DNA from: Ruditapes philippinarum
Taxonomy: Eukaryota
Direction of reading: 5' to 3'
NCBI RefSeq assembly: GCF_026571515.1
Contig: NW_026859100.1
Coordinates: forward strand, 62,001-126,000
Length of the DNA stretch: 64,000 bases
Part shown: in pieces, positions 4,464 to 64,000 of the stretch
How positions within the stretch are numbered: the stretch's first letter is position 1
How the letters are laid out: every line of letters begins with the position of its first letter
The notes under the pieces: model-generated
Told to the model about the DNA's origin: nothing
Seen by the model: only the letters and a program-made list of their open reading frames with translations
Database searches by the model: none
Position numbers and translations under genes: made by a program

Positions 4464-5717
4464 AGGGACTCAACTGAGGTATAAAAACCTAAAACCTATC
4501 TTCTGACATAGATAAGCTGGAGCAATTAAAACAAAAAGCTACATACATGCCATAAAGTCCCAGATGTCCGGGATTGTCCCGGAAATAAGGTGTCTGTCCT
4601 GCAGGCGTCCCGGAGATGATAAGAAGGTAATTAAACAACAGGGCCATGATGGCCCTGAGGTCGCTCACCTGTATATAGGCCCCCCGGAGCGGGGTCAGTT
4701 TAAACCTCAGGTCTTTTATTTGAACAAACTTGGAAGACACCCATTAGAAGATGTTTCATGATGTTAAGTTTTTACTACACATATAATGAAAAACAATGAT
4801 CTACCCCCCTCCCCTGGCAGGGCCAATTTTAACCCAAGGGCTTTTATTTGAACAAACTTGGTAGACACCCACAAGAAGATGTCTAAGCTCTAGCTCATTG
4901 AGTATTTTAAAAGATGATTTTTTAAGTTTTTACTGTACACATATAGTTAAAACAATGACACCCCTGGGGCGGGGCCAGTTTTGACCCCAGGGCTTTTATT
5001 TTATAAAACTTGGTAGACACTCATTAGAAGATGTTTCATGCCAAATATCTTAGATGTAGCTCTTTGGGTTCTTTAAAAGAAGATTCTTTTAAAGTTTTTA
5101 CTATATGCATATAGGGAAAATCAATGACCCCCTGGGGCGGGGCCAATTTTGACTCCAGGGCTTTTATTTGAACAAACTTGGTAGACACTCGCTAGAAGAT
5201 GTTTCATGCCAAATATCTAAGCTCTAGGTCTTTGGGTTTTTTAAAAGAAGATACTTCAAGTTTTTTCTTTCTTTCTGCATGGAATTAAATTCTTTGAACA
5301 ATTTTTAAAGGTGACCACCAAAGGAACATTCCTGTGAAGTTTGGATGAAATTGGCTTAGTGGTTTTATATGAGGAGATGTCATTTAAAGTAAAGTTTACG
5401 GACGGACGCCGGACGAAAAGCGATCACAAAAGCTCACCCTGACACTTTGTGACAGGTGAGCTAAAAATATCCATAGAAAATATTGAAAATCATATTTTTC
5501 AGCTATTCCTATGCTAATTTGATTTAAAAGCATTGCAATGTTTTTCATTTTAGGTTGTTTTTTTCACACAAATAAAATAATTATTCAGTGAAAACGAGTA
5601 AGTGAATGAATCTGAAATTTTTCACACAAGTTATTTGTCTAGACCAATACTAAATAGAAACGCAATCTTGAAAATCTTTCCAGTCCCGTTATGTCAAAAT
5701 ACCTCAGTGGAGACCCT
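4464..5717. mobile_element. TTAA-target (Kolobok-like) MITE with a nested HINE insertion
   Basis: TTAA|agggactcaactgagg ... cctcagtggagaccct|TTAA; termini are purine-purine...pyrimidine-pyrimidine. Confidence 0.75.
4633..5466 (-). mobile_element. Non-autonomous Helentron-type element (HINE/DINE-1-like), ~4 internal ~165-bp repeats
   Basis: On the minus strand: 5' palindrome agctcacctgtcacaaagtgtcagggtgagct, short (GTCC) tract, tandem core repeats, 3' subterminal repeat caggtgagc plus stem-loop agggccatcatggccct. Same family as 25747-27497. Confidence 0.8.
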
Positions 5718-25000: not shown

Positions 25001-28000
25001 AATTTTCAAGCTAGATTTATATGGCAGGTTGGTGGTTTTACTGATCGGGTGCACAAAATATATATCACTTAATGCAATTTATTGCTGGATGCAGAACTTC
25101 AACAATGCGTGAGCTATTTATGAACCCCAGTGTCGCAAAAAAAACAGGAAAGGAAAATATCTGTTATCTTAAGGTTGTTGATAAATAGTATTTAGTGTTA
25201 AACACATGATCGACAACTGTGTGTGTATATATGTGTTAATATACAGATAAAATTTGACAGAGGTTGTTAATCTTGTATACAGTGTATATTGAAGGTAAAA
25301 GGTCTTGTGTCCAAAAATGGGATTAAAAATAGTTCATGAATTAATTGCCTGCTTTTAAGTGACACCATTATATATGGGGACAAAAGTAAAAATTTTCCTT
25401 CTTCCTTAATGATGATATTAATTATAGAGATTCTTTATAATACAGATAGCTGGTTTGGTTTAAACATATTTATTTAAAAGCCATTGCGAAACAAGTTCTT
25501 GCAAATTATATTAACCACATTCGAGTCCGTTTACTGGAACCAACCAGTACTGGTGTCATATGAAGAAACATGGGCGAGACCCAAGTAGGGCTCGAACCTA
25601 TGATCTCTGGTTTGAAAGGCAGACACCTTAACCACTAGGCCACAATACAGATGAATTGCATATTAATGAAGATTTAATAACTAAATCTGTAGTTTATTTT
25701 ATTGTGATTTTATTGTGTTGATGTACAAAGTATTTTTCTCCAATTTTTAGCTCACCTGTCACAAAGTGACAGGGTGAGCTTTTGTGATCGCTTTTCGTCC
25801 GGCGTCCGTCCGTCCGTCCGTCCGTCGTCCGTCCGTAAACTTTTACTTTAAATGACATCTCCTCATAAACCACTAAGCCAATTTCATCCAAACTTCACAG
25901 GAATGATCCTTTGGTGGTCACCTTTAAAAATTGTTCAAAGAATTTAATTCCATGCAGAACTCTGGTTGCCATGGCAACTGAAAGAAAAAACTTTAAATAT
26001 CTTCTTTTAAAAAACCATAAGAGCTAGAGCTTAGATATTTGGCATGAAACATCTTCTAGTGAGTGTCTACCAAATTTGTTCAAAAATAAAAGCCCTGGGG
26101 TCAAAATTGGCCCCGCCCCGGGGGTCATTGATTTTCCCTATATGCATATAGTAAAAACTTAAAAAGCTTCTTTTAAATAACCCAAAGAGCTAGAGCTAAG
26201 ATATTAAGCATGAAACATGTTCTTATGGTGTCCTACCAAGTTTGTTCAAATAAAAGCCCTGGGGTCAAAATTGGTCCCGCCCGGGGGGGGGGGGGTCATT
26301 GATTTTCCCTATATGCATACAGTAAAACTTAAAAAATCTTCTTTTAAAGAACCCAAAGAGCTAGAGCTAAGATATTTAGCATGAAACATGTTCTAATGGG
26401 TGTCTACCAAGTTTGTTCAAATAAAAGCCCTGGGGTCAAAAATTGGCCCCGCCCCGGGGGTCATTGATTTTCCTTATATGCATATAGTAAAAACTTAAAA
26501 ATCTTCTTTTAAAGACTCAAAGAGCTATGGCTAAGATATTGAGCATCAAACATGTTCTAAAAGGTGTCTACTAAGTTTGTTCAAATAAAAGCCCTGGGTC
26601 AAAATTGGCCCCGCCCCAGGGGGTCATTGATTTTCCCTATATGCATATAGTAAAAACTTAAAAAATCTTCTTTTAAAGAACCAAAGAGTTAGAGCTAAGA
26701 TATTTAGCATGAAACATGTTCTAATAAGTGTCTACCAAGTTTGTTCAAATAAAAGCCCTGGGGTCAAAATTGGCCCCGCCCCAGGGGGTCATTGATTTTC
26801 CCAAGATGCATATAGTAAAAACTTAAAAAATCTTCTATTAAAGAACTCAAAGAGCTATGGCTAAGATATTTAGCATCAAACATGTTCTAATAGGTGTCTA
26901 CCAAGTTTGTTCAAATAAAAGCCCTGGGTCAAAATTGGCACCACACCCGGGGGTCATAGATTTTCCTTATATGTGTATAGCAAAAACTTAAAAAAATCTC
27001 TTTGAAAAAACCCAAATAGCTAGAGTTAAGATATTAAGCATGAAACATCTTTTAGTGAGTGTCTACAAAGTTTGTTCAAATAAAAGACCTGGGGTCAAAA
27101 TTGGCCCCGCCCTGGGGGTCATTGATTTTCTTTATATGTGTATAGCAAAATCTTAAAATCTTCTTTGAAAAAACCCAAATAGCTAGAGTTTAGATATTAA
27201 GCATGAAACATCTTCTTGTAAGTGTCTACAAAGTTTGTTCAATAAAAGCCCTGGGGTCAAAACTGGCCCGGCCCAGGGGTGTCATTGTTTTTTAACTATA
27301 TGTGTATAGTAAAAACTTGAAAAAAAATCTTCTTTTAAAAAGGCCAATGAAGCTAGAGCTTAGATGTTTAGCATGAAACATCTTATGGGTGTCTACCAAG
27401 TTTGTGCAAATAAAAGCCCTTGGGTTAAATTGGCCCTGCAACGTTGGGGGGGGGGGGGGGGGGGGGGCGACCTCAGGGCCATCATGGCCCTCTTGTTTCA
27501 TACTACCTATCACTTGTTTCCATTGCTGAAAGGTTGTCCCACTCAAAATGATTGTCTTTATTTCCCCTTCCCCTCCCCCCCCTCCCCCCCCCCAAGCCTT
27601 AACCTCAATAATGCTGATTATATACTGAAAGTAAAGGTACAGTGGTACTTAGAATACTGTAAGTTGATGTAGGTAATGTATGGAATGCATCGTGCATACT
27701 TCATAAATAACTTATTTGCTATGACTTGATAAAGGTTAAATACCAATCTGTCTAGGGTAAATATTTTGTAAAATAGCTAAGATGTCAATGTTTTCCTCCC
27801 TTTTAATGTAAACTTTAAATGTAGCCTCTTTAAATATTTAATCCTCGCATGATGCAATCTTAAAAAGGGATTAAACTCCTTAAGATTGACCGTTCCAAAT
27901 GCCTTTCCCTCTTGGATTAGCCTACGGGATAAATTTTGATATTGCACTGTTGTGTAAGTTGTAATAGTTGACGTGTTTGATATATTCACAAATATCTACA

Positions 28001-31000
28001 ACATGTTATATGTAATGACATCGTTTCCTGATTAACACTGATAAATACCACCAAACGTTATAACTACTGCACATGCATAAAAACATTGAGCTGTATAGGT
28101 GCATGCATGAAAACAGCTTTTGTGTGAGAATCACCACATGTTGTGCAGATTTACAGTTTGTTTTACCTTTTACTATTATCGATCTGTGTAGTATGTTTTA
28201 CTTTAACATAAACATACCATTGGGAAGTTATAATGGCTTTAAAAACCTTGGTGTAAAGGTTCAGTTGATCAATGCTGTAATAAAATATGAGCCGCGTCAT
28301 GACAAAACAAACATAGTGCGTTTGCGACCAGCATGGATCCAGACCAGCCTGCGCATCTGCGCAGTCTGATCAGGATCCATGCTGTTCGCTATCAGTTTCT
28401 CTACTTGTAATAGGGTTTGTAAGCAGGCTGGTCTGGATCCATGCTGGTTGCAAACCCATTATGTTGTTTTTGTCATGACGTGGCTCAAATGTATTTCTAC
28501 TGATCAGACCCATAACAGTGGATTACGATTGCTTTATGCTTTAAAGTTATTACATACATATATATAATCCAGGTGTTTTTGCACTACTTGATCTTTCATT
28601 GTTTAGAATGTTTTAAGAGCATTAATCATGATACCTTAGAAAAGAAAACACCTCCCTGCCAGAAATTATAAATACCTGTTTTATTCCTTACATTTGTATG
28701 CACCTATGGTATGGATTTTTCATTTATAATTTAAGCCTGCCTTTTCCCCTGGCCACAACTAATCTCTCTAACCCAAATTGCCTTTTATGAGTTTTGCCTA
28801 CCAATGCCTTATACTGTAACCAAAATGATTTTTGTTATATAATAAAGTTCCTTCTACCTCTTATATAAGAATTTTCCAAGTGCATATACACTTAAAGGGA
28901 ATTGACCTATAATGTTCTTAAAGGGAATTGCTCTATAATGGAAGGCCTGAAATACTATAAGTACTTATCAATATTGATAGTATCTAGTATTAGACATAAC
29001 AACAAACTTCGATAGAATTATATATGAATATTTTTGGCAAGTGTGAATTCTATACATGATCTGATATTACATATATTCATTTAGCAGATAATAAAATTGT
29101 TCTAAAACAGAATGCATGTATTATTCTTCATTTTTTAAATGTACATACAAAATCACTAAGATCTTTATCAACAGTTTGATTTTTATTCAAAGAAATATCC
29201 AAAGATACCTTTCTATTGTTTTTATCAATATTTGAATTATTTTTATCAATATTGGAATATTTGGAAAATTTGCCGATCGTAGACCAATCCACTTTAAATG
29301 GCAAATATGCCTTTGTAGACCAATCCACTTTAAAATGAATTCACTTGTATTTCATACTTCTTTTCAAATGAATTTTCTTTTATAATTTATATCTCATTTT
29401 TGCTACACAGTATGCTGACCCAGTGGCGGACCTGTTGGACAAGTGGGGAGTTTTTAGGGCGCGTTTATTCAGGGAATCATGTGTCTTTCATAGGGGTAAC
29501 TATGTCAAAGTAAGTATAGTTATTACATAGATTTGACACTTGGAAACTGATTATTAAACAAGCTGATAAATATTAAGCTGCAACTGTTGTAGCCATACAT
29601 AAATTAAAACAAGACGCTCCTTGAAGGGCGTTTCGCAGCTCTCCATTCTCCATTCGAGCCAAGTCTAACAAAGCTTGTCCATAACAGAAGTAGGCATCTG
29701 CACATTTTGTTATCTTTAATAAGTAATTGATTGATTGATTGGTTGATTGATGAATAAACAGATTGATGGATGGATCTTTGAATGATTGTGTGATTGATTG
29801 ATTGATTGATTGATCATAAACATGATAAACTGCATAATATTACATGTATATGAAAGGACTGAGTAGAAAAGACTTTGTTTTATAGCTTATCTACGAGGGT
29901 TTATATTTATCGCTATTTTATTACTTTATATACATTTTTAGTATTTGAGAATGTTGTGTTTTACATATATGACATCTGTTTGTTAAGGTACTTGTCAAAG
30001 AATGTTTTGTAATTTTAACAGTTGTCCTTCATAGAGAGGCAAAATATGTACATGTACATACAAATATATATAGAATGTTTAAAACTAGCTAAGATGAAGT
30101 ATGGAGGCTATATTTGAATATTGGAATGTTTTTCGATAGAATTTTTAATGCAATGGTAAATCAGTGATATAAACTCTAACCATGCAGGAAGCAACTGAAT
30201 CTTCCCCTGCTACCAGTGCAGACCAATATTGGCAAACACATAACGTCTGCGCTATTATCTATTTTAGTCTTATTCAGATTTACGTTGAATTTTTTTTTAT
30301 TCTGTCCAGATTGAAAGATAGACAAGTCCATTTAAGATATTTAGCAGGGAAATGGTTTAGATGAAAATGGAAAGGTTATTTTGAATGTTATAACAGAATT
30401 TTGAAGGCAATGTATTGTTTAATCATGGTCTGCACTTATTGCTATTCAGTCAGTACATATTTTGACATTTTCCCATAAAAGGATGAATGTATTTGTCCGG
30501 ATTTAAAAAAGTGACAATATTGAGTGTGGTAATGGTCCAATTATTTGGTTTATTTGAATCACATTAACTAATTAAGAATAACTAATGAAGATAATTCTAG
30601 CACACACTGACATTGCATCAAAACATATCTATGATACAGTCAAACCTTGTTTTGCTCGAACTCGGAGGGTTCAGGCAAAACTGTTTCGAGAAATCGGTAG
30701 TTCACTGTAATTAAAATGTTTACAACATAATCATGAATCAGAAAGAAAATCAGAATAAAGTCAGAATACATGTGTAGAGCTCTATATATTTATTATGTTA
30801 TAACGGATGTATATGTTAATTTCATTTTTTCAGGACTTAAGTCGACTTGGACGTGATCTAGGTCAGGTGATAATTATAGATAACTAATTTATATGTTTAT
30901 TACATTATTTTCAGGACTTAAGTCGACTTGGGCGTGATCTAAGTCAGGTGATAATTATAGATAACTGATATATATGATTATTACATATTTTCAGGACTTA

Positions 31001-34000
31001 AGTCAACTTGGACGTGATCTAAGTCAGGTGATAATTATAGATAACTGATATATATGTTTATTACATTATTTTCAGGACTTAAGTCGACTTGGGAGTGATC
31101 TAAGTCAGGTGATAATTATAGATAACTGATATATATGTTTATTACATTATTTTCAGGACTTAAGTCGACTTGGGCGTGATCTAAGTCAGGTGATTATTAT
31201 AGATAACTGATATATATGATTATTACATATTTTCAGGACTTAAGTCGACTTGGGCGTGATCTAAGTCAGGTGATAATTATAGATAACTGATATATATGAT
31301 TATTACATATTTTCAGGACTTAAGTCGACTTGGGCGTGATCTAAGTCAGGTGATAATTATAGATAACTGATATATATGATTATTACATATTTTCAGGACT
31401 TAAGTTGACTTGGACGTGATCTAAGTCAGGTGATAATTATAGATAACTGATATATATGATTATTACATATTTTCAGGACTTAAGTCGACTTGGACGTGAT
31501 CTAAGTCAGGTGATAATTATAGATAACTGATATATATGATTATTACATATTTTCAGGACTTAAGTCGACTTGGACGTGATCTAAGTCAGGTGATAATTAT
31601 AGATAACTGATATATATATGATAATTACATATTTTCAGGACTTAAGTCGACTTGGAAGTGATCTAAGTCAGGTGATAATTATAGATAACTGATATATATG
31701 ATTATTACATTATTTTCAGGACTTAAGTCGACTTGGACGTGATCTAAGTCAGGTGATAATTATAGATAACTGATATATATGATTATTACATATTTTCAGG
31801 ACTTAAGTCGACTTGGACGTGATCTAAGTCAGGTGATTATTATAGATAACTGATATATATGTTTATTACATTATTTTCAGGACTTAAGTCGACTTGGACG
31901 TGATCTAAGTCAGGTGATAATTATAGATAACTGATATATATGATTATTACATATTTTCAGGACTTAAGTCGACTTGGACGTGATCTAAGTCAGGTGATAA
32001 TTATAGATAACTGATATATATGTTTATTACATATTTTCAGGACTTAAGTTGACTTGGACATGATCTAAGTCAGGTGATTATTATAGATAACTGATATATA
32101 TGTTTATTACATATTTTCAGGACTTAAGTCGACTTGGACGTGATCTAAGTCAGGTGATTATTATAGATAACTGATATATATGTTTATTACATTATTTTCA
32201 GGACTTAAGTCGACTTGGACGTGATCTTAGTCAGGTGATTATTATAGATAACTGATATATATGTTTATTACATATTTTCAGGACTTAAGTCGACTTGGAC
32301 GTGATCTAAGTCAGGTGATTATTATAGATAACTGATATATATGTTTATTACATTATTTTCAGGACTTAAGGTAGAACGCGACACTTTGCGAACTTTAGAG
32401 TAGCGTCTTGAAAATTGGCATGCAAAAAATTGACCATATTTCTGATTGGATTTCGTTGATTTTATTTCAATAGTTTCAGCCAATTTTTGTACACATGACG
32501 TCAAAGTTGACCATCAAAGCCCGTTTTTGAACATGACGTCGTTGCGTATCCTTGGCAACTGTTACGGGTATTTTAACGCCATTGGCGGACAAAATATCTT
32601 AAATCCTACAGCATTCGACGGAAATTATTTTTTCCTTTAAGCAGATATAAAATTTATTGTTTTACGCCGAAAATTGTTTGAGAAATGGAAAGAAAATTGT
32701 CAATTTTGTGTAAAATTTGACGTTCAGTTTAGCCGCAATTTTCGGCTTTAAAGCGGCTTATTAAAAAATTCCTGAAATAAATTTTTGATTTTTTTCTTTA
32801 AGCGTCCTTTAAAATGTATATTTAGTCAAAATATCTAAACAAATTAGGGGGTCACCGACTCAATTTTTTCGGTACACATGATTTTATTTCCCCCACCCCT
32901 TTGGAAAAAAGTCACGCTATCACGGGGCGTTTGGTTTTTTGATGTTATTAAAACGATCGCCCTGTGTCAAAATCCCGCTTTTTACGGCATTTTACGCTAT
33001 TATGACCACTGCGGAAAATATTTGGATACAATAAAGGACACGGAATTCCGTATATTATAGATAGACAGGTAAAAATAAGTGAAATTTGATGTACGGGACC
33101 GTATATCATGCATATGTATACGACTAATATACCGTGATCCGTACACTCGTAATATGCGGGAACTTTGAATGAAGTTCATATTTACTACGTATTTTTTTTT
33201 AATTACACGATCAGATATTACCAAAATATGTTTTTTTTTATTCTTGTAAATACAGATTTTGTATATAAAACAGTGAATAAAGATGTACTTCAGAATTACC
33301 CACTTTCTACAAGAGGAAAGAAATAATAGTCTGATCTGACATTTGTCAGAATAACATTAAATAGTAAAACTTTGAGTAAAATGTAATATTTAACATGTAT
33401 AAAACATGTGTTTTATTAACATGTCAGTTGCATACTGATTAAATAGTTAGTGAAACATCGACAGATCCTCTACAGTGCCCATAGCTTGTACAGACAAAAA
33501 AATGACAATATATATTGAAATATCTTTATTTTGTATAAAGATTTACAACGCAACACTCCTTTGTGCAGTCAGTATCTAGCTCAGGGCCGCCGGTTTGCTA
33601 AAATCCGCAAACCTGTATTTACAGCGTTTCATTATATTTCATGTTTAAAGTACTGTTTCTAAATTTTCCTGTTCAAAATAAATTCTACCATAAATTTTGC
33701 TACACAGTGAATAATGAATATTTGCAAAGGCCGATTTGATAGTAATGTTTTTAATACAGCGTTTATGGCGAATCCTCAATTAATCATTATTTCTAACATT
33801 ATGATATTCTAAAATGATAAGCAAAACGAGAGAATATGTATTACAGATACTTGTAGAATCGAACGTGCTACATCTGTAATCCAACACCCACTGAGCTAAC
33901 GTTTCAAGCATGACTGTTTGCTTCACGCTAATATAATTGACTTAGTTTCATTTATGAACCGTATATTTTAATTTGTCAATATTTCGCCAATTCTGTCAAA

Positions 34001-36209
34001 TTGTTGCAATAGTTTTTGATTACAAGTGAGATTCAAATTCTGGTTTTTAATAGGTGAAATAAAATACATATCACTCACAGTATATCACTCATAGTGTGGG
34101 TAATGCAAAATGTATAGATTTGCAGAATTTCTTGTAGACTACGTATTAATTTATGATTGAATTTCCGTAAATTTCTAAATTTACATAAAAATATATAGTT
34201 GCTTTTTGTTCCTTAAGGCATATTTCTCGATTCAAGTTTATTAATCTTATTGTATTACAATATCAAAAAGGAACACCGCAAATGTTTACTCTCAGCTGTA
34301 TTTATTTTTGTTTGCGCAGCGTACGCGTTGCCGTTGAACGCCTGACGTCATTTTCTTTACATGCGTCTGTTTACAATTCCTTATGAAGTTATTAATCATG
34401 CTTAAAAACAAGAAAAAAAATCGTTTGTTTTTCGTACAATTTTAAGTATTTGCAATGGAACATTGCTGTAGTTGTTTTATATGTATTAGTAAAACTCTAG
34501 AACAATTCTCCTGATAAGCTGAACATTGTTGCCGCACTTTGAAGTCTCAAACGTATCTGCATACGTCGAATTTCGTTACAAAATTACTCACGTGTGGGGG
34601 AAATAAAATCACGTGTACCGAAAAAATTGAGTCGGTGACCCCCTAATTTTTTTTGTTATTTTGACTAAATATACATCTTAAAGGACGTTTAAAGAAAAAA
34701 ATCAAAAATTTATTTCAGGAATTTTTTAATAAGCCGCTTTATAGCCGAAAATTGCGGCTAAACTGAACGTCAAATTTTACACAAAATTGACAATTTTCTT
34801 TCCATTTCTCAAACAATTTTCGGCGTAAAACAATAAATTTTATATCTGCTTAAAGGAAAAAATAATTTCCGTCGAATGTTGTAGAATTTAAGATATTTTG
34901 TCCGCCAATGGCGTTGAAATACCCGTAACAGTTGCCAAGGATACGCAACGACGTCATGTTCAAAAACGGGCTTTGATGGTCAACTTTGACGTCATGTGTA
35001 CAAAAATTGGCTGAAACTATTGAAATAAAATCAACGAAATCCAATCAGAAATATGGTCAATTTTTTGCATGCCAATTTTCAAGATGCTACTCGAAAGTTC
35101 GCAAAGTGTCGCGTTCTACCTTAAGTCGACTTGGACGTGACCTAAGTCAGGTGATAATTATAGATAACTGATATATATGTTTATTACATTATTTTCAGGA
35201 CTTAAGTCGACTTGGGCGTGATCTAAGTCAGGTGATAATTATAGATAACTGATATATATGATTATTACATATTTTCAGGACTTAAGTCGACTTGGACGTG
35301 ATCTTAGTCAGGTGATAATTATAGATAACTGATATATATGTTTATTACATTATTTTCAGGACTTAAGTCGACTTGGGCGTGATCTAAGTCAGGTGATAAT
35401 TATAGATAACTGATATATATGTTTATTACATATTTTCAGGACTTAAGTCGACTTGGACGTGATCTAAGTCAGGTGATAATTATAGATAACTGATATATAT
35501 GTTTATTACATTTTTTCAGGACTTAAGTCGACTTGGGCGTGATCTAAGTCAGGTGATAATTATAGATAACTCGCCAGCTTCCTATATCTTCCATCCTGAT
35601 AATGCAGTAAGTATTCCTGCTATTTTTAGAAGCATTACTTTTGGGTTTATCTTCTTGAATGTAAACGGGAACAGGATCCCACCTCAGTCTTCGGATTCTA
35701 TCCAGCTAGCTTACTAATGATTGGTGGTCTACTCAACTGCTTGCTTGTGCCTGAAATAATGCACAGCAGGTAACGTGGTGTGTTAGTTTAAACATAGTTA
35801 TTTAAGCTTGATTGCGAAACTTATATTAATCACTTTCGAGTCCGCTTCCTGGAAACAATCCATACTGGTGTCCTATCATAAAGAAACATGGTCGTATTTA
35901 CCTCTCATTTTAGCATCAAACTTTTCATTTCTAGCATTGCACTCCTCATTTTTCTTTCGAGAAAGGTTGTTTTTATTGTGAAATTGTACTACCTTTGGTA
36001 CAATCATGTACTTCTTATTCTGGCTTTCAAGCGATAATAAACCCTTTTATATAATAATTCTTTTATTTTTACAGGTACCTTGCCAGTCTTGGTTTGATGA
36101 TATGCAAGATACTGAATTACTAGACCTTATACCATTTTTCGAAGGACTTGCTAAAGTCGATGACGTGTATTCAGTGTTACGAAATACGAACAATACGGAT
36201 TCTTCCTAG
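9684..36209 (+). CDS. CTDSPL: CTD small phosphatase (SCP; CTDSP1/CTDSP2/CTDSPL co-orthologue), 265 aa; join(9684..9759,20381..20526,21657..21761,24757..24906,29411..29509,35520..35606,36075..36209)
   Basis: All introns are GT-AG with compatible phases (1,0,0,0,0,0). N-terminus [16 protein letters not shown], di-Cys motif FLCCF, HAD catalytic motif [12 protein letters not shown], then [67 protein letters not shown] and SWFDD; all are hallmarks of the FCP/SCP family. Confidence 0.96.
12302..12327. repeat. (CA)n microsatellite
   Basis: Direct read; another (CA)n at ~16021-16053. Confidence 0.9.
14411..14778. mobile_element. TTAA-target MITE (TIR AGCWGCAYGCCTC...)
   Basis: TTAA|agctacatgcctc ... 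ggaggtaagctgct|TTAA; related to 56156-56465 and ~48870-49200. Confidence 0.7.
15276..15545. mobile_element. TTAA-target MITE (TIR GGTAGTCTTAC)
   Basis: TTAA|ggtagtcttactttaatgctttcc ... ggaaagcattacagtaagactacc|ttga; a related right end lies at ~23404-23417. Confidence 0.7.
16090..16238. repeat. ~33-bp minisatellite (aatgaaatcYtctttggggtttaggatcc...)
   Basis: About four degenerate tandem units. Confidence 0.7.
18302..18416 (+). CDS. Candidate alternative first coding exon of CTDSP ([39 protein letters not shown])
   Basis: ATG-initiated 38 codons ending AAAG|gtagtt in phase 1, the phase that exon 2 (20381) requires. No homology support. Confidence 0.3.
18605..18800 (+). mobile_element. tRNA-derived SINE
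   Basis: A box TGGCCGAGTGG and B box GGTTCAAACC, followed by a gtactggttggttccag...aacgga body shared with the SINE at 25470-25643. Confidence 0.7.
20381..20526 (+). CDS. CTDSPL: CTDSP coding exon 2
   Basis: tttttcag|GG TCG...; [22 protein letters not shown]...[11 protein letters not shown]|gtaaat. An alternative in-frame gtaaat donor at 20497 is also possible. Confidence 0.85.
21241..21600 (+). mobile_element. Degraded HINE-like element
   Basis: Residual 5' palindrome-like start, short gcgtca tract and ~170-bp repeated ttgaaactt...cacactt core. Confidence 0.4.
21657..21761 (+). CDS. CTDSPL: CTDSP coding exon 3 (catalytic DLDET motif)
   Basis: tttcag|[35 protein letters not shown]|gtaagc. 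Confidence 0.96.
21750..22200 (+). repeat. Degenerate ~30-bp minisatellite resembling the exon 3 donor junction
   Basis: AGTTCATTTAAG|GTAAGCT is echoed as aagttaatttaaggtgaaagct, aagctcattttatggtaagct, aactcattttataataagct, agttcatttaaagcgaagct and others. Confidence 0.55.
23509..23590 (+). repeat. Two tandem copies (~41 bp) of the exon 4 acceptor plus the first 13-16 nt of exon 4
   Basis: ttattttttatttcag-ccaattagtaatgcag (23519-23550) and tatttttcatttcag-ccaattagtaatg (23561-23588) match the true junction at 24741-24772. Confidence 0.85.
23603..24727 (+). mobile_element. Non-autonomous Helentron-type element (HINE-like), ~4 internal ~170-bp repeats
   Basis: 5' palindrome agtcccctaccggtttaccggaggggact, (GTCC/GTCT)n tract at 23646-23724, core repeats beginning aaactggatcc at ~23728, 23897, 24067 and 24238, 3' subterminal repeat accggtaggggact plus short hairpin. 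Confidence 0.82.
24757..24906 (+). CDS. CTDSPL: CTDSP coding exon 4
   Basis: tttcag|[50 protein letters not shown]|gtacga. Confidence 0.96.
25470..25643 (-). mobile_element. tRNA-derived SINE
   Basis: Minus strand A box TGGCCTAGTGG and B box GGTTCGAGCCC; body ccagtactggttggttccagtaaacggactcg. Confidence 0.72.
25747..27497 (+). mobile_element. Non-autonomous Helentron-type element (HINE-like), ~9 internal ~165-bp repeats
   Basis: 5' palindrome agctcacctgtcacaaagtgacagggtgagct, (GTCC)n tract, nine aaaagccctgggg-containing units, 3' stem-loop agggccatcatggccct. Confidence 0.85.
28288..28487. mobile_element. Palindromic MITE copy with a deletion in the right arm
   Basis: tgagccgcgtcatgacaaaac ... 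gtcatgacgtggctca; same family as 1992-2228. Confidence 0.85.
29411..29509 (+). CDS. CTDSPL: CTDSP coding exon 5
   Basis: acacag|[33 protein letters not shown]|gtaagt. Confidence 0.96.
29728..29814. repeat. (GATT)n imperfect microsatellite
   Basis: Direct read. Confidence 0.8.
30805..35570 (+). repeat. 80/81-bp tandem array made of the exon 6 acceptor (29-30 nt of intron) plus the first 51 nt of exon 6; 25 units, the last being the real exon
   Basis: Exon-like starts (cag|GACTTAAG) at 30834, 30915, 30995, 31076, 31157, 31237, 31317, 31397, 31477, 31557, 31639, 31720, 31800, 31881, 31961, 32041, 32121, 32202, 32282, 32363 (split by the transposon), 35199, 35279, 35360, 35440 and 35520. Confidence 0.95.
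32370..35120. mobile_element. Non-autonomous DNA transposon, 2751 bp, ~527-bp TIRs, TTAA TSD (Kolobok-like)
   Basis: TTAA (32366-32369)|GGTAGAACGCGACACTTTGCG ... CGCAAAGTGTCGCGTTCTACC|TTAA (35121-35124). TIRs span 32370-32897 and 34594-35120. Removing the element restores repeat unit 20 exactly. No transposase ORF inside. Confidence 0.92.
35520..35606 (+). CDS. CTDSPL: CTDSP coding exon 6
   Basis: ttttttcag|[29 protein letters not shown]|gtaagt; the only array unit that continues into SPASY and a consensus donor. Confidence 0.93.
36075..36209 (+). CDS. CTDSPL: CTDSP terminal coding exon 7
   Basis: tttacag|[44 protein letters not shown](TAG). Confidence 0.95.
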
Positions 36210-49800: not shown

Positions 49801-50206
49801 TTGTTTCAACTTGACACGACATACTGACCATGCTTGGTAAATTCTATTTAAATGTTTGCTAATTAAAATAGAAGGAAAAAATGAACTTACTTTTCATATG
49901 CTCGCTTATCCATAAATGATCACTGGATTGGTCGCCATCTGCCGGCACAAGAGTGCTGTTTTGTTGTATGTAATGACGACACACTTTCGTGATTTCATTA
50001 AACATTACAGCGTGACAGTCCAGACATCTCCTCAGACAGTCAAATCGTGAAACAGTTCCAGATTTACTGCGGAACTCGTCTCCTAAAATGGCGACGCTTC
50101 CGGCCCGAAAAAAGTATCGTCCTTGAACATTTCCACCTTCTGACGAATATACAGATAAAGCATGCACACAAATTAACAGGCTGACTAAAATAAAATAAGT
50201 ATTCAT
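46842..50206 (-). CDS. Secreted PAN/Apple-like + Link (Xlink) module protein, 205 aa; complement(join(46842..47007,47624..47759,49891..50206))
   Basis: Exon 1: signal-peptide-like MNTYFILVSLLICVHALSVYS and PAN-like C-x3-C-x2-C-x-A-x2-FN-x5-C, donor A|gtaagt (phase 1). Exon 2: ggacag|TA..., SAVKFSDSRLMTFGEAEELCQSLDGRLATHRELSNIRDEGYHLC, donor TG|gtttgt (phase 2). Exon 3: ttacag|C..., CGWLSDTTSRAPLYYSDPGC...HYDAAYCIFTA*. The total of 618 nt is in frame, and the Link consensus (tf-EA---C---g--LAT--ql------G---C--GW------P------C...dayC) is complete. Confidence 0.85.
47796..47940. mobile_element. Palindromic MITE copy with deletions in both arms
   Basis: tgagccgcgtcatgacaaaaccaac ... ggttttgtcgtgacgcggctca; lies ~36 nt from the exon 2 acceptor of the PAN-Link gene. 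Confidence 0.82.
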
Positions 50207-54214: not shown

Positions 54215-54315
54215 TTATATAAAGAGGATGAAACTGTCAAAAGTTGGAAGAGTTACTTTAGAATTTCCCATTGTAAGGCTCATTGTGAAGTCATAGGCTC
54301 TGCATAAAGGTAGGG
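54215..54315 (+). promoter_or_regulatory. Candidate TATA promoter and non-coding first exon of the Met-rich gene
   Basis: TATATAAAG at ~54216, followed ~85 nt later by donor-like AAAG|gtaggg (54310). The ATG exon at 57837 begins with an acceptor, so an upstream UTR exon is required. Other candidates exist (e.g. TATATAAG at ~57300). Confidence 0.3.
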
Positions 54316-54471
54316 TGTTTATTTAATTATACAATATTCTTTTTCTTTTTATACAAAATAAAATTTGTTATACTTTCATATAATTTTAACAGCAAAAAAT
54401 GTAAAAGAAAAAATTTAATACTCTACTTCTTATCATTTAAATAAGCAGATTTTTTTCTTTACCAAAATATT

Positions 54472-54790
54472 TTACCAAAGTAAATGTGTTACGATTCAAT
54501 CCTATTGGACAAAAAATAATTTCAAACAATAATATGTGTTTTATTGAAACACATTAATATAAAAAAAGCATTCTTAGAAAATACATTTTCGTTTTATAGC
54601 AAACAGTTTACGAATTTGGTTGGATTAATCTTGAAATTTATTCTTAACGAAATCAAAGACCTAAAGTGTTTGAAATTATTTTTTGTCAGCTAAAATTGCA
54701 GTATTTTAAATGAATTAATGTTTGAAATTATTTTTTGTCCAATAGGATTGCAGTTTTTCAAACGAACCGTAACACATTTACTTTGATAAA
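54472..54790. mobile_element. Probable MITE (inverted repeats ~55-70 bp)
   Basis: caaagtaaatgtgttacg...aatcctattggacaaaaaataatttcaaaca is inverted at 54719-54789. Confidence 0.55.
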
Positions 54791-56155
54791 ATCGGCACTT
54801 TTAAATCGACTGTTTAGAAAATAATTTAAAACACGAAGCTATATAAAATTCACTAGTACGTATCTAAAAAATTAAAATGGTCCAACAGCTTAATAATAAA
54901 CATTAACTTACTGAGCTTACGAGTTCATACTCAAATATAAGAATTATTTCATTTCTATGCCTGAAATATTAGGCCTAGATTATAATAAATGTATTCTTTA
55001 TGTTTTCCAATAACTATTAAGCATAATTATAATAACCTTTATAAAATGCTACATTTTTTGAATTTAAGAGTTCTGCTCTGGCAATTTCAAATTGAGATGT
55101 CTAAGATTATCACACATTTTATAGTTTTGTTCATTTGGAACTGCCTCGGCTATTATCTATGTCCGAAGACTGACGGAAAGGGCCGAGTAGTTGCGATTGA
55201 GTTTTGATATGTTTTGTTTTATGTAAGTACTATGTCAATGTAGATGGGAACCATTTATGTTAATTGGATATTTTACTGTTTTTCTTTTCGAATTTACACA
55301 CTGAAAAGATTGAATTTTGTAATTATAACAATTATTAAATTGACACAATATTTTTTTATGCGGCGCAGATATATCATGGCGGATTCTCTTGTAGGTTTAT
55401 ATTTAATCGAAGTGAGCTCGTAATAATTCCGTATTTCAATCAGTATAGCATAATCTGCTGTAAATATTTTATGTTTAATAATAAATAAATTATCAACTTT
55501 GTTAATGCCAACAGAGTACGTCATTTTTTTTTTATTATATTGCGGCATTCCCCTTTACTGGGCTGTAGGCCTGCTGCATTTTGTAAATAGTTTAAAGTTG
55601 ATTTTTTTAGAACTAACATTTCCAAGGCATTTGTACAGCCATTATTATCCTAACTAAGGGTAAGTTAGAGAATGGTCTTATTCTTAATTGTAGCAACATT
55701 CCGAACAAATATCATTATTTTTCATAAAATTTTTAGTACAAAAAGTAACGGTAAAGATACGAATATTAAACGAAATGTTTCGTCTTATCATTAATTATTA
55801 AATGTTTACACGTAATGACGTTCCGATGTCCGAAATTGTTACCAAAATACATATTGGGCGTAGGTTTCGGCCATTAACACATCTGTGGAAGTTTCTAAAT
55901 TCCAAATTTCATACCATTTTTATGTTTAATTGTTGAATTGTACCATAGTCGGTGCTAGGGAGGGTGTAGGATGGTTGTTTGCATTAACCACTACCATCCA
56001 TGAAGACATTTTCAACATTTTCAATTTTACTTTGGGCGGTCTTTAGCAATTCCATTTTTGACCATTTTCTAATAGGTCTAAATTTTTCTTTACATTATTG
56101 TTTTGATTGAATTCGCATCAGATTGCACCAAGCATATGGTGTAAATGGTATTTAA

Positions 56156-56465
56156 AGCTGCACGCCTCCAGATGAGCCAAAATATTTCAAGAAATTCAAT
56201 ATTTAGAAAAATGTATTAAGATCATAAGAAAAGTAAAGAGATTCAATATTTAATTAATTATTTACATGTTATGTGCGATTAATGAATGCTTTTGCAGTAT
56301 CAATCACTATAATTTAGTGAGAAGTATTTATGTATATTTTGACCTCTTTTTGGTAATTTACGTGAATTGTAAGTGCCGTTTGCAATTGGTTCACTTCACA
56401 ATATTTTACTTTAACATACATTTTCAAAATTTTCATGAAAATTAATAATCTGGACGCATGGTGCT
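56156..56465. mobile_element. TTAA-target MITE (TIR AGCWGCAYGCCTCCAGAT)
   Basis: TTAA|agctgcacgcctccagat ... atctggacgcatggtgct|TTAA. Confidence 0.72.
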
Positions 56466-57844
56466 TTAAGGTATTGATAAGACTATAAGGAACTGAAAAA
56501 TTGACAACTTAGTTGAGTTATAATCATGTACATGTATATTGATTCAAAGAGCTTTAAATTACTATAATGAACATTGGTCATGCTTTTATGACATAGGATT
56601 TTTTTTATTGTAAACTTGGGTTATCGGATAAATAAACGACGTTTGTTACAACTTGCTTGCAGCGCGTGTTTTTATAGCATGTAATTCTCATGTAAAAAGC
56701 ATTTACATATGTTCCAACAGAAAATGTAACTTTAATGACTTAAAGAAAACCATGTGACAAGCAAGATGGATTTTAAATTGTGTCAAGTTTTACGTGTTAT
56801 TAACGGTGGTAAAAATCAAAGCACTGGAAATGCTGGAAAGAAGTGGAGTATTTGAGTCAGAATTACAACCTCTTTAAGTGTTTATCACATGTAGCACGTG
56901 CGTTTTAGTTAAAAGTATTTCAAAATGTTTTCCGCTGACAAAATTTTATTGGAAACCATATTTGTTTCTGAAATTAACAATTATTTGTGTTTTTGTATGT
57001 ACAATTTTATTGCAATACAGGTCACCTACATTAATCTTTTATCACATTGAATTAACTGTTATATTATGTTAAATCGAAATAAATAACTTCAAAACACACA
57101 CGCTGGTGATTGATTCGCCTGACTAGAACTGGAAACAATGCCTCATTCTGATATATTCAACGGGGGTCAGAAAAATGCAATCAAGCGGAAAGCCAATTTC
57201 TAGATGATTATTATTACTGCACAAAGAAATATCTACGGCAAATGTGGACCCGAAAATGAAAATTGCTAAATTCACGCATTCATGCACAATTTTACTAGGT
57301 ATATAAGCTTCGTTTCAATAACATTAGTTAAAAACAATACATATAAGCAATATGTTTTGCCATTTTACTTTCGGCTATATGGACAACGCCGTGCTGGTTC
57401 TCAAAATCGAGAAAATTACCTACTCATTATAGGTTTTCCCAGGGTTAAAATTAGAAACTGCATCGCTTTTAAAATTATGAAAGCTCGTCGATGATTGGCT
57501 GTGTGAAAGGTCACCAGAAATGACTTCGTATTTGGTCACGGTTAGAGCTAAAAGCGGAGCGTTATTTAGAGCTGATTTTACAAGTCCGTTTACAAGTTAT
57601 TGTGTTAAAATTCAATGTACAAAAGTTACACTTTAAATTCATTTTAAATAACTTTAGCATTTTTTCTTCTGAATTAAGGTATGAAGTTGTTTCAATGTTG
57701 CTTTATATGCGCTGTAGTTCGCGACAAAGGTGCAGTCGTTTAGGTAACGGTTATCAAAGTGAATATCAAGGTTAGACTCTACATCTTTCATACGTTCTTT
57801 AAAACTTTATCAAAAATAACATTTCGTATATTTCAGGTATAATC

Positions 57845-60236
57845 ATGATGGTAATAGCAGTAACATGTTTGACATTGGTTCTCTGTGTGTCGCCGTCGCT
57901 TTCGACCGTCCATATGAACGAGAATGGTAAGTTCGTCATTAAAATTTTGTTTATCTAAGCTTCATTTTCTGGATTTAAATAATTAATTTCGAGAAATCTG
58001 ACAAACTATGTCTTTTACTTACTTTCTCTATTGTTCGACTTCACTTCATTACTTTAGAAATAACACTGCACGTAATGAATAAATAGGTACTATATTCTAT
58101 ATTCGTAGCTTGATTTCTAGTTACCTACTTAACCAGAACTTTCTTTGTTGCTATTAAAATATCTGAGGCACAATGTTTGAGGCATAATAAAATTTGTTTG
58201 CTTTTGAATTCTTAAGGAGGAAAGAACATGATGCCGGAGATGCCAATGGAAAAACCAGAAATGAAAATGGCGAAAAATAACATGATGAATAAAATGCCTA
58301 TGCCTATGATGAAAAAGATGATGCCGATGATGTCGATGAACAACAAAATGCCCATGGACATGAAAATGATGCCAATGGACAACAAAATGATGCCAATGAA
58401 CAACAAAATGATGGACATGAAAATGATGCCAATGAATATGATGCCAATGGACAACAAAATGATGGACATGAAAATGATGCCAATGGACAACAAAATGATG
58501 CCAATGAACATGAAAATGATGCCAATAGACAACAAAATGATGCCAATGAACATGAAAATGATGCCCATGGACATGAAAATGATGCCAATGAATAACAAAA
58601 TGATGCCAATGGATAACAAAATGATGCCAATGGACATGAAAATGATGCCAATGGACATGAAAATGATGCCAATGAATAACAAAATGATGCCAATGGATAA
58701 CAAAATGATGCCAATGGACATGAAAATGATGTCAATGGACAACAAAATGATGGACATGAAAATGATGCCAATGGACATGAAAATGATGCCAATGGATAAC
58801 AAAATGATGCCAATGGATATGAAAAATGATGCCAATGGACATGAAAATGATGCCAATGGATAACAAAATGATGCCAATGAATATGATGCCAATGGACAAC
58901 AAAATGATGGACATGAAAATGATGCCCATGGACATGAAAATGATGCCAATGGACAACAAAATGATGCCAATGGATATGAAAATGATGCCAATGGACATGA
59001 AAATGATGCCAATGGATAACAAAATGATGCCAATGAATATGATGCCAATGGACAACAAAATGATGGACATGAAAATGATGCCGATGGATAACAAAATGAT
59101 GCCAATGGATATGAAAATGATGCCAATGGATAATAAAATGATGCCAATGGACATGAAAATGATGCCAATGCCAATGGATAACAAAATGATGCCAATGGAC
59201 AACAAAATGATGCCAATGGGTAACAAAATGATGGACATGAAAATGATGCCGATGGATAATAAAATGATGCCAATGGATATGAAAATGATGCCTATGGATA
59301 TGAAAATGATGCCCATGGATAACAAAATGATGCCAATGGATAACAAAATGATGCCAATGAATAACAAAATGATGCCAATGGATAACAAAATGATGCCTAT
59401 GGAAATGATGAAAATGATGCCAATGGATATGAAAATGATGATGAAGGATTGCCCTCCTGAAATGATGCCAATGATGATGGAGATGATGAAAATGATGCCA
59501 ATGGACAACAAAATGATGCCAATGGATAACAAAATGATGCCAATGGATATGAAAATGATGCCAATGCCAATGGATAACAAAATGATGACAATGGACAACA
59601 AAATGATGCCTATGGATAACAAAATGATGCCAATGGACAACAAAATGATGCCAATGGACATGAAAATGATGCCAATGGATAACAAAATGATGCCAATGGA
59701 TATGAAAATGATGCCAATGGATAACAAAATGATGCCAATGGATATGGAAATGATGCCAATGAATAACAAAATGATGCCAATGGACATGAAAATGATGCCA
59801 ATGGATAACAAAAATGATGCCAATGGATATGAAAATGATGCCAATGCCAATGGATAACAAAATGATGCCAATGGACATGAAAATGATGCAAATGGATAAT
59901 AAAATGATGCCAATGGATATGAAAATGATGCCAATGGATAACAAAATGATGCCAATGGATATGAAAATGATGCCAATGCCAATGGATAACAAAATGATGC
60001 CAATGGACATGAAAATGATGCCAATGCCAATGGATAACAAAATGATGCCAATGGACATGAAAATGATGCCAATGGATAACAAAATGATGCCAATGGATAT
60101 GAAAATGATGCCAATGCCAATGGATAACAAAATGATGCCAATGCCAATGGATAACAAAATGATGCCAATGGGTCCAGACTGTCCACCAGGTATGCAGGGT
60201 ATGGACATGAAAATGAAAAAGAAAGGTGGATACTGA
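57845..60236 (+). CDS. Secreted extremely methionine-rich repetitive protein (~699 aa after correcting two +1 A insertions); join(57845..57926,58217..60236); candidate hinge-ligament or shell-matrix protein
   Basis: Exon 57837-57926 (tttcag|gtataatcATG) encodes signal-peptide-like MMVIAVTCLTLVLCVSPSLS-TVHMNEN-G|gtaagt. It splices in phase 1 to cttaag|GA GGA AAG AAC ATG(58228), in frame with the (MMPMD[M/N]K)n ORF. Three overlapping + strand ORFs join at A5 runs (58822-58826, 59810-59814) where all other units have A4. Ends GPDCPPGMQGMDMKMKKKGGY*. Variation is mostly synonymous (GAT/GAC, CCA/CCC/CCG/CCT) and indels are whole codons. Confidence 0.88.
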
Positions 60237-60346
60237 AAAATAAGTTATTGAAATTTACTAGTATTCAAATTGATTGGGTTCGCCCTTTACCATCAAAAAA
60301 TGGCATAGACTTTTTAGGGTACACGTTTACATGTAAACGAGAGTTC

Positions 60347-60400
60347 AATAAATTATGTAATAAATTTCTTTGCTTTACTGGTATTTCAAAACCAAATAAA
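60347..60400 (+). terminator. Candidate polyadenylation signals of the Met-rich gene
   Basis: AATAAA at 60347-60352 and 60395-60400, downstream of the TGA at 60236. Confidence 0.5.
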
Positions 60401-61099
60401 TGTGGACTGTTCGTTAGAACATATTCCAGCTTTTAATTTCATATATCAACACTATAGTTGGAATTGATTTTTTCCCAGTCCAAGTCTGGTTTTTGACTTC
60501 ATGTAAAATTTGCAGGGAAGAATTGAATATAAGAAGGGTTTTCATTGGTCATTTTAAAATTACAAAATGAAATCTGGGAATCTCATTGGCCATTCTAAAC
60601 TAAAATGTAAATGAAAGTTCTTGCCATTATAAAATAAATGTAAAGGATACAGTAGTTATAAAATACACCTTTTTTGTAAAATGAAAAGGATAATTCTTTC
60701 TAGTCAAATGGCTTAGATATTTAAATTCTGTTTAACAATACTTCCTCCCACAAAACATTTTACACTGCATTCAGATCTTTTTACATTTTCTAGTGAACAG
60801 TTTTTTAGTACATTTTGCATAAGATCTGGGTTTTTTTTTTAAATTTTGTCCAAAAGTACCGATACTTATCAGAACCTAATCAGGTACCTTAAGTTTATGA
60901 TGTTCAATAAGTGTCTCATATATTGTATGATTATCGTTGTGTTCAATTAATGAAAATGTTGATAATTTTCACACATTTTTGCATATTATTAATATTAATC
61001 AAGTATATAAACAAAAGCAATAAAAGGCTAGATAATATAAAGTCCCGATCCAGGACTTGTGTGGCATGACATAATTGGGAAAGATAATCACCGCCATTG

Positions 61100-61519: not shown

Positions 61520-64000
61520 CAGTTGCTTTTGCTGAATCAATTTGTTACTCAGAATAATCAATTTGTTAATATGTAGAATCAAAAAGTTACTCAGTAGAAA
61601 TTGGTAAATCTGCCTCAGCAGAATCAAATGATTACCCAGCAGAATAAAACGGTCACTCATCAGAACCAATAGATTTCTTTGTCTCAGTAGGATCAAATGG
61701 TAACTCAGCAGAAAAGAATGGTTAAATCTGCAGAATAACCTTTTGATTCTGCAGAATAACCATTTGATTCTTCAGAATAACTATTTGATTCTGCAGAATA
61801 ACCATTTGATTCTGCAGAATAAGCAATTGACTCTGCAAAATAACCATTTGATTCTGACAATTAGCCTTTTGGTTCTCCGGAATACAATTATGGTTCTTCA
61901 GATTAACCAAACCTATTCTGCAGGGTATTGATCTTACAGAGTAACCTTTGATTGTGCAGAATAAACTATGGATTCTGATGAATTACCATTTCATTTGATT
62001 TTGCTTAGTTACCAGCAGTATCAAATGGTTACTTAGCAGAATCAAATCGAATAGTTACTCAGATTAAACAAATGGTTACTCAGCAAAATCAAATGGTTAT
62101 TGAGCGAAATCAAATGGTTACTCAGCGGAATCAAATGGTTACTCAGCAGAATCAAATGGTTACTCAAGAAAATCAAATGATTACTCATTTGGTTACTTAG
62201 CAAAACCAATTCAAATGGTTCCTCAGCAGAATCAATTGGTAACTTAGCAGAATCAAATGGTTACTCAGCAGGATCAATTGATTACTCAGCAAAATCAAAT
62301 AGTTACTTAGCAGAATTAGTTCGTTACCCAGCAAAATCAAATAATTATTCAGTAGGATCAAATGGTTACTCAACAAAATCAAATGGTTACTCAGCAGAAA
62401 TAAATGGTTACAAAACAAAATCAAATGACAACTCCGCAGAATCAAATGGTAACTCGGCAGAATGAAATGATTCTTCAGCAGAACCAAATAGTTACTCAGC
62501 AGAATAAATTGGCTACTCAGCAGAAACAAATGATCCCTCAGTAGAATCAGTAGTTTATTTTGCATAATCTAAAGGTTAGTCCGTAATATCAGTAAGTAAA
62601 CCTGCAGAAGCAGTAGGTTACTCTAATGACTATTTGGTTAATCTGAAGAACCATTATTTTATTCTGGAGGTTACTTGGTAGAATCAAATGCTTATATTGC
62701 AGAATCATTATATTACTCAGTAAAATCAAAGGTTACTATTCTAAATCAGTCGGTTACACCCTGTGGAATCAATGGGTCATGTTGTTATGTTGCTCTTCAA
62801 AGCAATTGATTACTCTGCAGAAACAATATGTTACGTATAAGAATCAATTGATTACTTTGAAAACCAGTAGATAAATAAGTCTGCAGAATCCATTGGTTAT
62901 TCTGGAAAACCTCTATGTAACTGCAAAGAAATTCCATGTTACTGTGAAGAACCTCAATGCTACTGTGAATAAACACTATGTTATTCTGAGGAACCACTAT
63001 GTTATTCTGAGGAACCACTATGTTACTGTGAAGAACCACTATGTTACTGTGAAGAACCACTTTGTTACTGTGAAGAACCACTATGTTACTGTGAAGAACC
63101 ACTATGTTACTGTGAAGAACCACTATATTACTGTGAAGAACCACTATGTTACTGTGAAGAACCACTATGTTACTGTGAAGAACCACTATGTAACTGTGAA
63201 GAAATCAATATGTTACTGTGAAGAACCACTATGTTTACTAAGTGAAGAACCACTATGTTACTGTGAAGAACCACTATATTACTGTGAAGAACCACTATGT
63301 TACTGTGAAGAACCACTATGTTACTGTGAAGAACCAATATGTTACCGTGAAGAAACCAGTATGTTTCTGTGAAGAACCAATATGTTACTGTGAAGAACCA
63401 CTATATTACTGTGAAGAACCAATATTTTACTGTGAAGAACCACTATATTACTGTGAAGAACCAATATGTTACTGTGAAGAACCACTATTTTACTGTGAAG
63501 AACCACTATGTTTACTGTGAAGAACAAATATGTTATTCTGAAGAACCAATATGTTTACTGTGAAGAACCAATATGTTACTGTGAAGAACCAATATGTTAC
63601 CGTGAAGAACCACTATGTTACTGTGAAGAACCAATATGTTACTCTGAAGAACCAATATGTTACTGAGAAGAACCAATATGTTACTGCAAAGAACCACTAT
63701 GTTACTGTGAAGAACTAATATGTTATTCTGAAGAATCAATATGTTACTGTGAAGAACCAATATGTTACTGTGAAGAACCAATATGTTACTGTGAAGAACC
63801 ACTATGTTACTGTGAAGAACCAATATGTTATTCTGAAGAACCAATATGTTACTGTGAAGAACCAATATGTTACTGCAAAGAACCACTATGTTACTGTGAA
63901 AAAAACCACTATGTCACTGTGAAGAACCACTATGTTACTGTGAAGAACCACTATGTTACTGCAAAGAACCACTATGTTACTGTGAAGAACCAATATGTTA
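61520..64000. repeat. 21-bp minisatellite: degenerate AATCAAATGGTTACTCAGCAG units grading into homogeneous GAAGAACCA[C/A]TATGTTACTGT units; runs off the window end
   Basis: 21-bp periodicity throughout; the block at ~61728-62013 is in reverse orientation. Confidence 0.9.

Follow-up and report, generated by a model that had tools for sequence, protein, structure and literature searches.

The locus and its transcript

The window, by which we mean the whole 64,000-nt stretch of Ruditapes philippinarum DNA analysed here, carries a three-exon gene whose first exon is non-coding and whose last exon contains a long tandem array of methionine-rich units (Table 1). The gene is transcribed and spliced. 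RNA contigs of two runs from different studies, X2 and X1, contain the 57926->58217 junction, with precisely the 290 nt of the GT..AG intron missing, and the bins of this intron are without depth in both runs; these spliced contigs fix both the plus strand and the Met frame. X2 is RNA on record and X1 was taken as RNA by guess, the runs bear no tissue label, and the reads of 4 of the 24 runs were compared with 56800-58345, a stretch ending short of the array and its frame breaks. The first-pass annotation, made from the sequence alone, had described a signal-peptide exon spliced in frame to the repeat, a description that the absence of a transcript or of this junction would by its own account have refuted; the contigs of X1 and X2 show both.

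Table 1. Features of the Met-rich gene, in window positions
Feature	Position	Strand	Basis
TATA box, predicted promoter	54218..54223	+	TATAAA ~90 nt before exon-0 donor
Exon 0, non-coding 5' exon	54245..54309	+	3' end from contig ends; start predicted from TATA box
Intron 1, GT..AG	54310..57836	+	Sequence
Exon 1	57837..57926	+	RNA contigs in X1 and X2; hydropathy
Intron 2, 290 nt, GTAAGT..TTAAG	57927..58216	+	Joint in X2 (depth 189) and X1 (depth 22)
Exon 2 start, basic irregular Met-rich lead-in, ~44 aa	58217..58347	+	Translation; RNA contigs to 58345
21-nt tandem array, heptads MMPMD(N/M)K and variants of 5, 9 and 12 residues	~58348..60143	+	Sequence, translation
First frame break, five A for four	58822..58826	+	Sequence
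Irregular insert, first Cys (codon at 59450) in DCPP motif	59440..59494	+	Sequence
Second frame break, five A for four	59810..59814	+	Sequence
Non-repeat C-terminal tail, stop TGA 60234-60236	60160..60236	+	Translation
Predicted 3' UTR, AATAAA at 60347, 60359 and 60395	60237..60420	+	Sequence

Exon 1 comprises 8 nt of 5' UTR, the ATG at 57845, a predicted signal peptide (about 20 aa) with 7 further residues, and a phase-1 donor. Its coding part (57845-57926) specifies a hydrophobic leader with an 11-residue Kyte-Doolittle peak of 2.85, for which a rule-of-thumb prediction would place cleavage after Ser20. Before position 57835 three contigs have loose ends, of 11 letters in two X1 contigs and 8 letters in one X2 contig, and only one place in the window matches them, 54297-54307, which is followed by AG/GTAGGG, a GT donor. 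The upstream non-coding exon ending at 54309 and the TATA box at 54218 had been absent from the first-pass annotation. A substitution at 58271, changing Ala to Gly, is shared by X1 and X2; a silent one at 57877 is present in a single X1 contig.

Expression is high in X2 and lower in X1, contig depth being a poor measure of level, and it is patchy, since no exon 1 read was found in two further runs: none among 12.9 million raw reads of X22 (~4% of the run), which has 1-3-fold depth where exon 2 begins, and none among 7.4 million of X24 (~6% of the run), which has no read at the start of exon 2 either. A dispersed repeat within intron 1 (window ~57424-57580) has more than 400-fold depth in X22 and is abundant in other transcripts; nearly all reads on it continue into unlike sequence. 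Another repeat, dispersed genome-wide, starts at about 60490, past the predicted 3' UTR.

Of the neighbours that can be recognised, the nearest is a small minus-strand exon (window 49862-50206), divergent from the Met gene, which encodes a leader and a PAN/apple-like domain (Pfam PAN_1 at E=0.002, below the cut-off; Atlas PAN clusters at 0.94) and has no evident link to the Met gene. Downstream, window 61534-64000 and about 150 nt beyond it (L033) are occupied by two further 21-nt arrays, SNGYSAE-like and then EEP(L/I)CYC-like, which read in a single frame interrupted by numerous stops and frame shifts; a non-coding minisatellite, a decayed gene and a badly assembled Cys/Tyr/Glu-rich gene are the candidates. 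Also on the plus strand, at 30834-32314 and 35199-35552, are 80-nt tandem arrays of 19 and 5 copies, with a stop in 2 of the 24; each unit resembles a 33-nt micro-exon (TTTCAG before, GTGA after; 11 residues) followed by a 47-nt intron, so that the arrays could be either a micro-exon array or a satellite. Tandem repeats of 165-171 nt, one adjoining a TCCG microsatellite, lie at 4882-5265, 23724-24398 and 25986-27436, and we take them to resemble bivalve satellite or Helitron-like elements. Elsewhere in the clam genome that we searched (G000), a 255-aa open frame of 14-residue repeats with 15% Met lies beside a TCCG-type repeat (L086:4419-5183, minus strand; contig C13765) and is probably satellite-derived. 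A spliced-looking gene with a long DDADDV(N/K) repeat, read by eye, is found on two contigs (L002:1020-1700, minus strand, C163; L003:1380-1960, plus strand, C13398) and is a candidate Asp-rich shell protein.

Repeat array, reading frame and product length

The Met-frame pieces total 699 aa (84 kDa with the leader) and are composed of 46.6% Met, 13.7% Pro, 13.4% Lys, 10.7% Asp, 8.9% Asn and 1.1% Gly, which agrees with the first-pass description of a Gly-poor protein that is about half methionine. The commonest Lys-ended units are MMPMDMK (25 copies) and MMPMDNK (23), the two heptads that the description had picked out, followed by MMPMPMDNK (7) and MMDMK (6). The exon-2 product has 323 Met among its 672 residues and 94 Lys against 82 Asp plus Glu, for a net charge of +12; the repeat core is neutral, the ends are basic, and there is no acidic tract. 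Lys stands directly before Met in 86 of 94 instances. The same 672 residues include one Tyr, no Trp, Phe, Arg or His, and two Cys, both in DCPP motifs, the second of them (60180) in a C-terminal tail that also contains four Lys and a terminal GGY. AlphaFold2, applied to the first 202 residues as a single sequence without alignment, gave no confident fold (mean pLDDT 50.4, pTM 0.17).

Is the array maintained as protein? The array is under coding constraint. The 672 codons of exon 2 contain no stop, and of 81 unit spacings 79 are divisible by three, as the claim of codon-sized indels had it, the remaining two being 22 nt. When units were defined by DNA likeness alone and the possible single-base variants were counted, the whole array showed 8 of the 11 possible synonymous changes and 13 of the 115 possible non-synonymous changes (p=2e-5). 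The corresponding fractions are 4 of 7 versus 9 of 35 for transitions only (p=0.12) and 2 of 11 versus 6 of 115 for the first segment alone (p=0.15, not significant), and hence the synonymous bias that had been noted at first pass holds overall and is weaker in these two subsets. Past the first frame break the fractions are 8 of 11 versus 8 of 115 (p=1.4e-6; transitions only, p=0.028). Since array copies are not independent of one another, all of these p-values serve as a guide only.

A non-coding minisatellite with an accidental Met frame would be one way to account for such an array, since ATG-rich simple repeats are very common in G000, where a loose pattern matches about 12,000 times, and long stop-free frames are present on the minus strand too. 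We consider this explanation extremely improbable in view of the absence of stops, the in-frame spacings, the synonymous-biased variation, the GT..AG introns on the plus strand and the spliced RNA, in which the array follows a leader in the Met frame.

How long is the product? As assembled, the Met frame is split over three open reading frames, and the spliced product is a protein of 242 aa (41% Met) with an off-frame tail. The first-pass figure of about 700 aa in frame is correct as the sum of the pieces, but it requires two single-base corrections that went unmentioned there. Both breaks are +1 changes and affect the corresponding four-A run within the unit, and five A are found in only these 2 of the 82 runs in the array, the other 80 having four. 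The extra A at 58822 and at 59810 are very probably residual assembly errors and the product full-length, at about 699 aa; this reading is favoured by the coding constraint past the first break, by a frame free of stops and by the distinct C-terminal tail. That one or both extra A are real in this allele, leaving a 242-aa protein and the rest untranslated, is the literal reading of the assembly, and the reads compared covered 56800-58345, which ends upstream of the breaks. This shorter product is nevertheless improbable, given the confinement of both breaks to the same run and the 1.4 kb downstream that retain synonymous bias and contain no stop. In the neighbouring 21-nt array 5 of the 55 spacings are off frame and all five are insertions, which fits residual long-read error, or drift if that array is non-coding. 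There is also a precedent for mis-assembly in LMP, the pearl-oyster (Pinctada fucata) ligament methionine-rich protein, whose draft gene model has 127 aa versus about 298 aa in the published figure. The choice between the two lengths concerns size and not necessarily function, and is separate from the functional readings discussed below.

Copy number and likeness to known proteins

G000 belongs to a venerid-type clam, to judge from the mollusc label of X2 and from an i-type lysozyme exon that matches PDB 2DQA, the Manila clam enzyme, at 55 of 60 residues, far better than 3AB6, the enzyme of another venerid. Searches of G000 found one copy of the gene. One unit pattern had 26 exact matches, every one of them in this array, and a second had 34, of which 32 fall here and the other two have no Met-rich frame; the lead-in and exon 1 each match G000 at this locus only. 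Three weak matches, L002-L004, were rejected as paralogues, having a different repeat and no Met-rich frame, and a loose Met pattern was of no use for finding relatives, as it was swamped by ATG microsatellites. Exact-match patterns coding for MMMKPDMM- or MMKPDM had no match in G000, which may be incomplete, and all eight candidate loci from a search of G000 with the protein P0106 (141 of 530 candidates scored) held nothing comparable, with at most 15% Met. The present gene is thus the best LMP-like candidate found.

The search for orthologues drew on Pfam, the PDB, the ESM Atlas, word-based searches, exhaustive phmmer and a metagenome scan. The protein homology search gave none of 543 candidates at E<=0.001; at E<=10 one of 875 candidates passed, P0001, a GFA-domain protein that was set aside as unrelated. 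With the C-terminal 46 aa as query, none of 37 candidates was retained. No Pfam family matched any of four protein pieces at E<=0.1, the ESM Atlas gave no usable match and Rfam none, and the single PDB match (E=0.27) was rejected as chance. A whole-chain Met repeat was absent among the 150 matches listed of 395 in a representative library, which score by periodicity, and two loci in the JGI metagenomes match the pattern MMPMD-x-x-MMPMD. Neither LMP nor any orthologue was returned by these sequence searches, and since the tools are poor with low-complexity queries, the missing orthologue is weak evidence. Similar heptads do occur as linkers or tails in the unrelated proteins P0001, MMPMD(A/S)K, and P0106, MMPMDKS, and such repeats therefore arise readily and more than once. 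In P0106 and P0156 (both in ENA) a tail of MMPMDKS repeats, variable in length, follows a secreted domain of about 185 aa that contains Cys and matches no Pfam family; the domain was not found in G000. A literature text search gave no match for MMMKPD and no relevant occurrence of the clam protein's peptides, which subscription papers and supplements may contain; PMC4944945 and PMC12746419 contributed nothing further.

Among the proteins compared, the closest, LMP (pfu_aug1.0_3952.1_44831.t1), is a signal peptide followed by (MMMKPD)n (PMC7591529 Fig. S3), and the first-pass annotation had correctly given it MMMKPD-type repeats. It has a basic Met-rich lead-in, about 30 MMMKPD units as counted by eye and a short Tyr-containing tail, in about 298 aa (PMC7591529). 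Compared by eye, the clam protein has the same plan, that is, a leader, a basic Met-rich lead-in, a long Gly-poor near-neutral repeat and a short Tyr-containing tail, with no globular domain in either protein. Both are about half Met and share their four main residues (Met, Lys, Pro and Asp) in similar ratio, with one Lys, one Pro and one Asp for every three to four Met; the LMP unit is 50% Met and the clam heptads are 43% and 57%. Both lead-ins open with Gly-Lys and continue with MMP-rich text, a likeness by eye that composition alone could give, and the tails differ. The clam heptad, on the other hand, includes Asn and has at most two Met in a row where the LMP hexamer has three, the clam protein has about 699 aa against about 298, it has two Cys in DCPP motifs where mature LMP has none, and it comes from a venerid-type clam rather than a pearl oyster. 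We have not filed the clam protein as an LMP because neither MMMKPD nor KPD occurs in the 672 residues of its exon-2 product and common descent with LMP is putative.

The remaining comparisons are more distant. Abductin, the rubber of the scallop resilium, is described as a 116-aa protein of 58% Gly and 1% Pro with the motif GGFGGMGGGX (PMC9999432 section 3.2.5), and is likewise characterized as Gly-based in PMC13052691. Like abductin, the clam protein is a Met-rich, low-complexity bivalve protein that is predicted to be secreted, but with 1.1% Gly, 13.7% Pro, no Phe, about a quarter of its residues charged and some six times the length it does not belong with abductin, and the term "elastomer" used at first pass is unsupported. 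With reflectins, whose motif is given as PER-X2-DM-X4-MD-X5-MD-X7-P in a context of high aromatic content (PMC9149877), the clam protein shares Met-Asp every seven residues, in runs of up to nine with the MD-X5 spacing. This likeness is superficial: the PER motif is absent, aromatics and Arg are almost absent, and the clam protein has a secretion leader; membership was rejected. The insoluble Pinctada shell proteins NU-5, P,NU-5 and pfu_aug1.0_1662.1_66071.t1 also have Met-rich low-complexity regions and are thought to self-assemble into mineral scaffolds. In these proteins the Met-rich stretch lies beside other regions rich in Gly, Gln, Asn or acidic residues, whereas the mature clam chain is all Met repeat. 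The NU-5 type is marked by a Met-rich region paired with a separate acidic one, and the clam protein, positively charged and lacking an acidic tract, was not placed among them.

A likely ligament framework protein

We propose that the clam protein is an LMP-like insoluble framework protein of the fibrous hinge ligament and not a rubber-type elastomer, a role that we consider likely on balance. Bivalve hinge ligaments are unusually Met-rich according to older surveys of ligament composition, and the resilium protein of the surf clam is said to contain methionine sulfoxide; a literature search for methionine sulfoxide together with resilium gave no match. LMP was the top-scoring insoluble ligament protein in the account of PMC7591529 (score 480.75, 365 spectra) and is called a ligament framework protein in PMC13080008, which, citing Suzuki 2019 and Futagawa 2025, describes it as adopting a spiral conformation, resisting pressure and aligning aragonite nanofibres. 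The fibrous layer of the ligament is described as aragonite fibres in a protein matrix in all species (PMC12577713), and ligament proteins are described as being without the acidic tracts of nacre and prism proteins (PMC7591529). The LMP-like plan of the clam protein and its own want of acidic tracts support the ligament reading, and its anatomy suggests that it would work as LMP does. Patchy expression fits as well, since the tissue expected is small. Composition alone does not place the protein in the ligament, because Met-rich regions are also reported from the nacre and prism proteins of Pinctada (PMC7591529).

How might such a chain form a framework? The protein would be exported, as its leader predicts, probably from the mantle isthmus. 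Met side chains could act as hydrophobic stickers while Pro would prevent the charge-balanced heptads from folding compactly, and the heptads would then self-associate, by way of Met thioethers and pairs of Lys with Asp, into a matrix that is dense and insoluble. This matrix may surround the growing aragonite nanofibres and hold their alignment under compression, with Asp as a possible calcium contact, and may be fixed by disulfides formed by the cysteines of the two DCPP motifs, possibly with oxidative Met-Lys links as well. Met-Lys cross-links have been proposed by analogy with collagen IV (PMC7591529), and Met-Lys sulfilimine links have been proposed for abductin (PMC9999432).

Rather unlikely is the alternative that the protein belongs to the insoluble matrix of the shell itself or of the periostracum and is secreted by the mantle edge or pallium. 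Insoluble proteins with Met-rich regions are reported from nacre, prism and ligament alike, and knock-down of NU-5 is reported to have disturbed nacre (PMC7591529); patchy expression, moreover, is compatible with any mantle zone. But the Met-rich regions of shell proteins sit inside larger Gly-, Gln- or acid-rich chains, only LMP is, like the clam protein, almost wholly an M/K/P/D repeat, and the clam protein has neither an acidic tract nor a Pfam domain.

A quite unlikely possibility is a secreted protein outside the shell, in mucus, byssus, egg coat or haemolymph, whose thioethers serve as an oxidant sink or bind soft metals of the Cu(I) type. Methionine scavenges oxidants and Met-rich motifs bind Cu(I), and the number of Met residues and the lack of a confident AlphaFold2 fold for the first 202 residues would suit such a role. 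Strictly periodic, charge-paired heptads under purifying selection are more suggestive of a structural polymer, however, and the exon-2 product offers no His and only two Cys. As for a more elaborate version of the ligament reading, in which venerids would have independently evolved a Met polyampholyte for the hinge ligament that converges on LMP chemistry, is cured by Met-Lys sulfilimine bonds and has its stiffness set by Met oxidation, we regard it as quite unlikely. If true, it would describe a structural material built mainly on a cross-link known from collagen IV.

What would a ligament role mean? The type of protein is already known from LMP; it is the unit MMPMD(N/M)K and the greater length that differ. 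Futagawa 2025, on Met-rich repeats "in molluscan ligaments", may already list such proteins. In the literature examined, pearl oyster LMP is the one known case of a Gly-poor Met-repeat ligament framework. Why such genes escape notice may be explained by frames broken in assemblies and by standard homology searches that fail on low-complexity sequence. The clam gene supplies exact peptides for ligament proteomics, as well as a simple repeat with which to examine what has been proposed for bivalve hinge proteins on Met oxidation and on cross-links between Met and Lys. A second, longer version from a remote clam lineage would tell which features count, namely Met fraction, Lys/Asp balance and Pro spacing, and, its unit being another one, would imply that the hexamer itself is dispensable.
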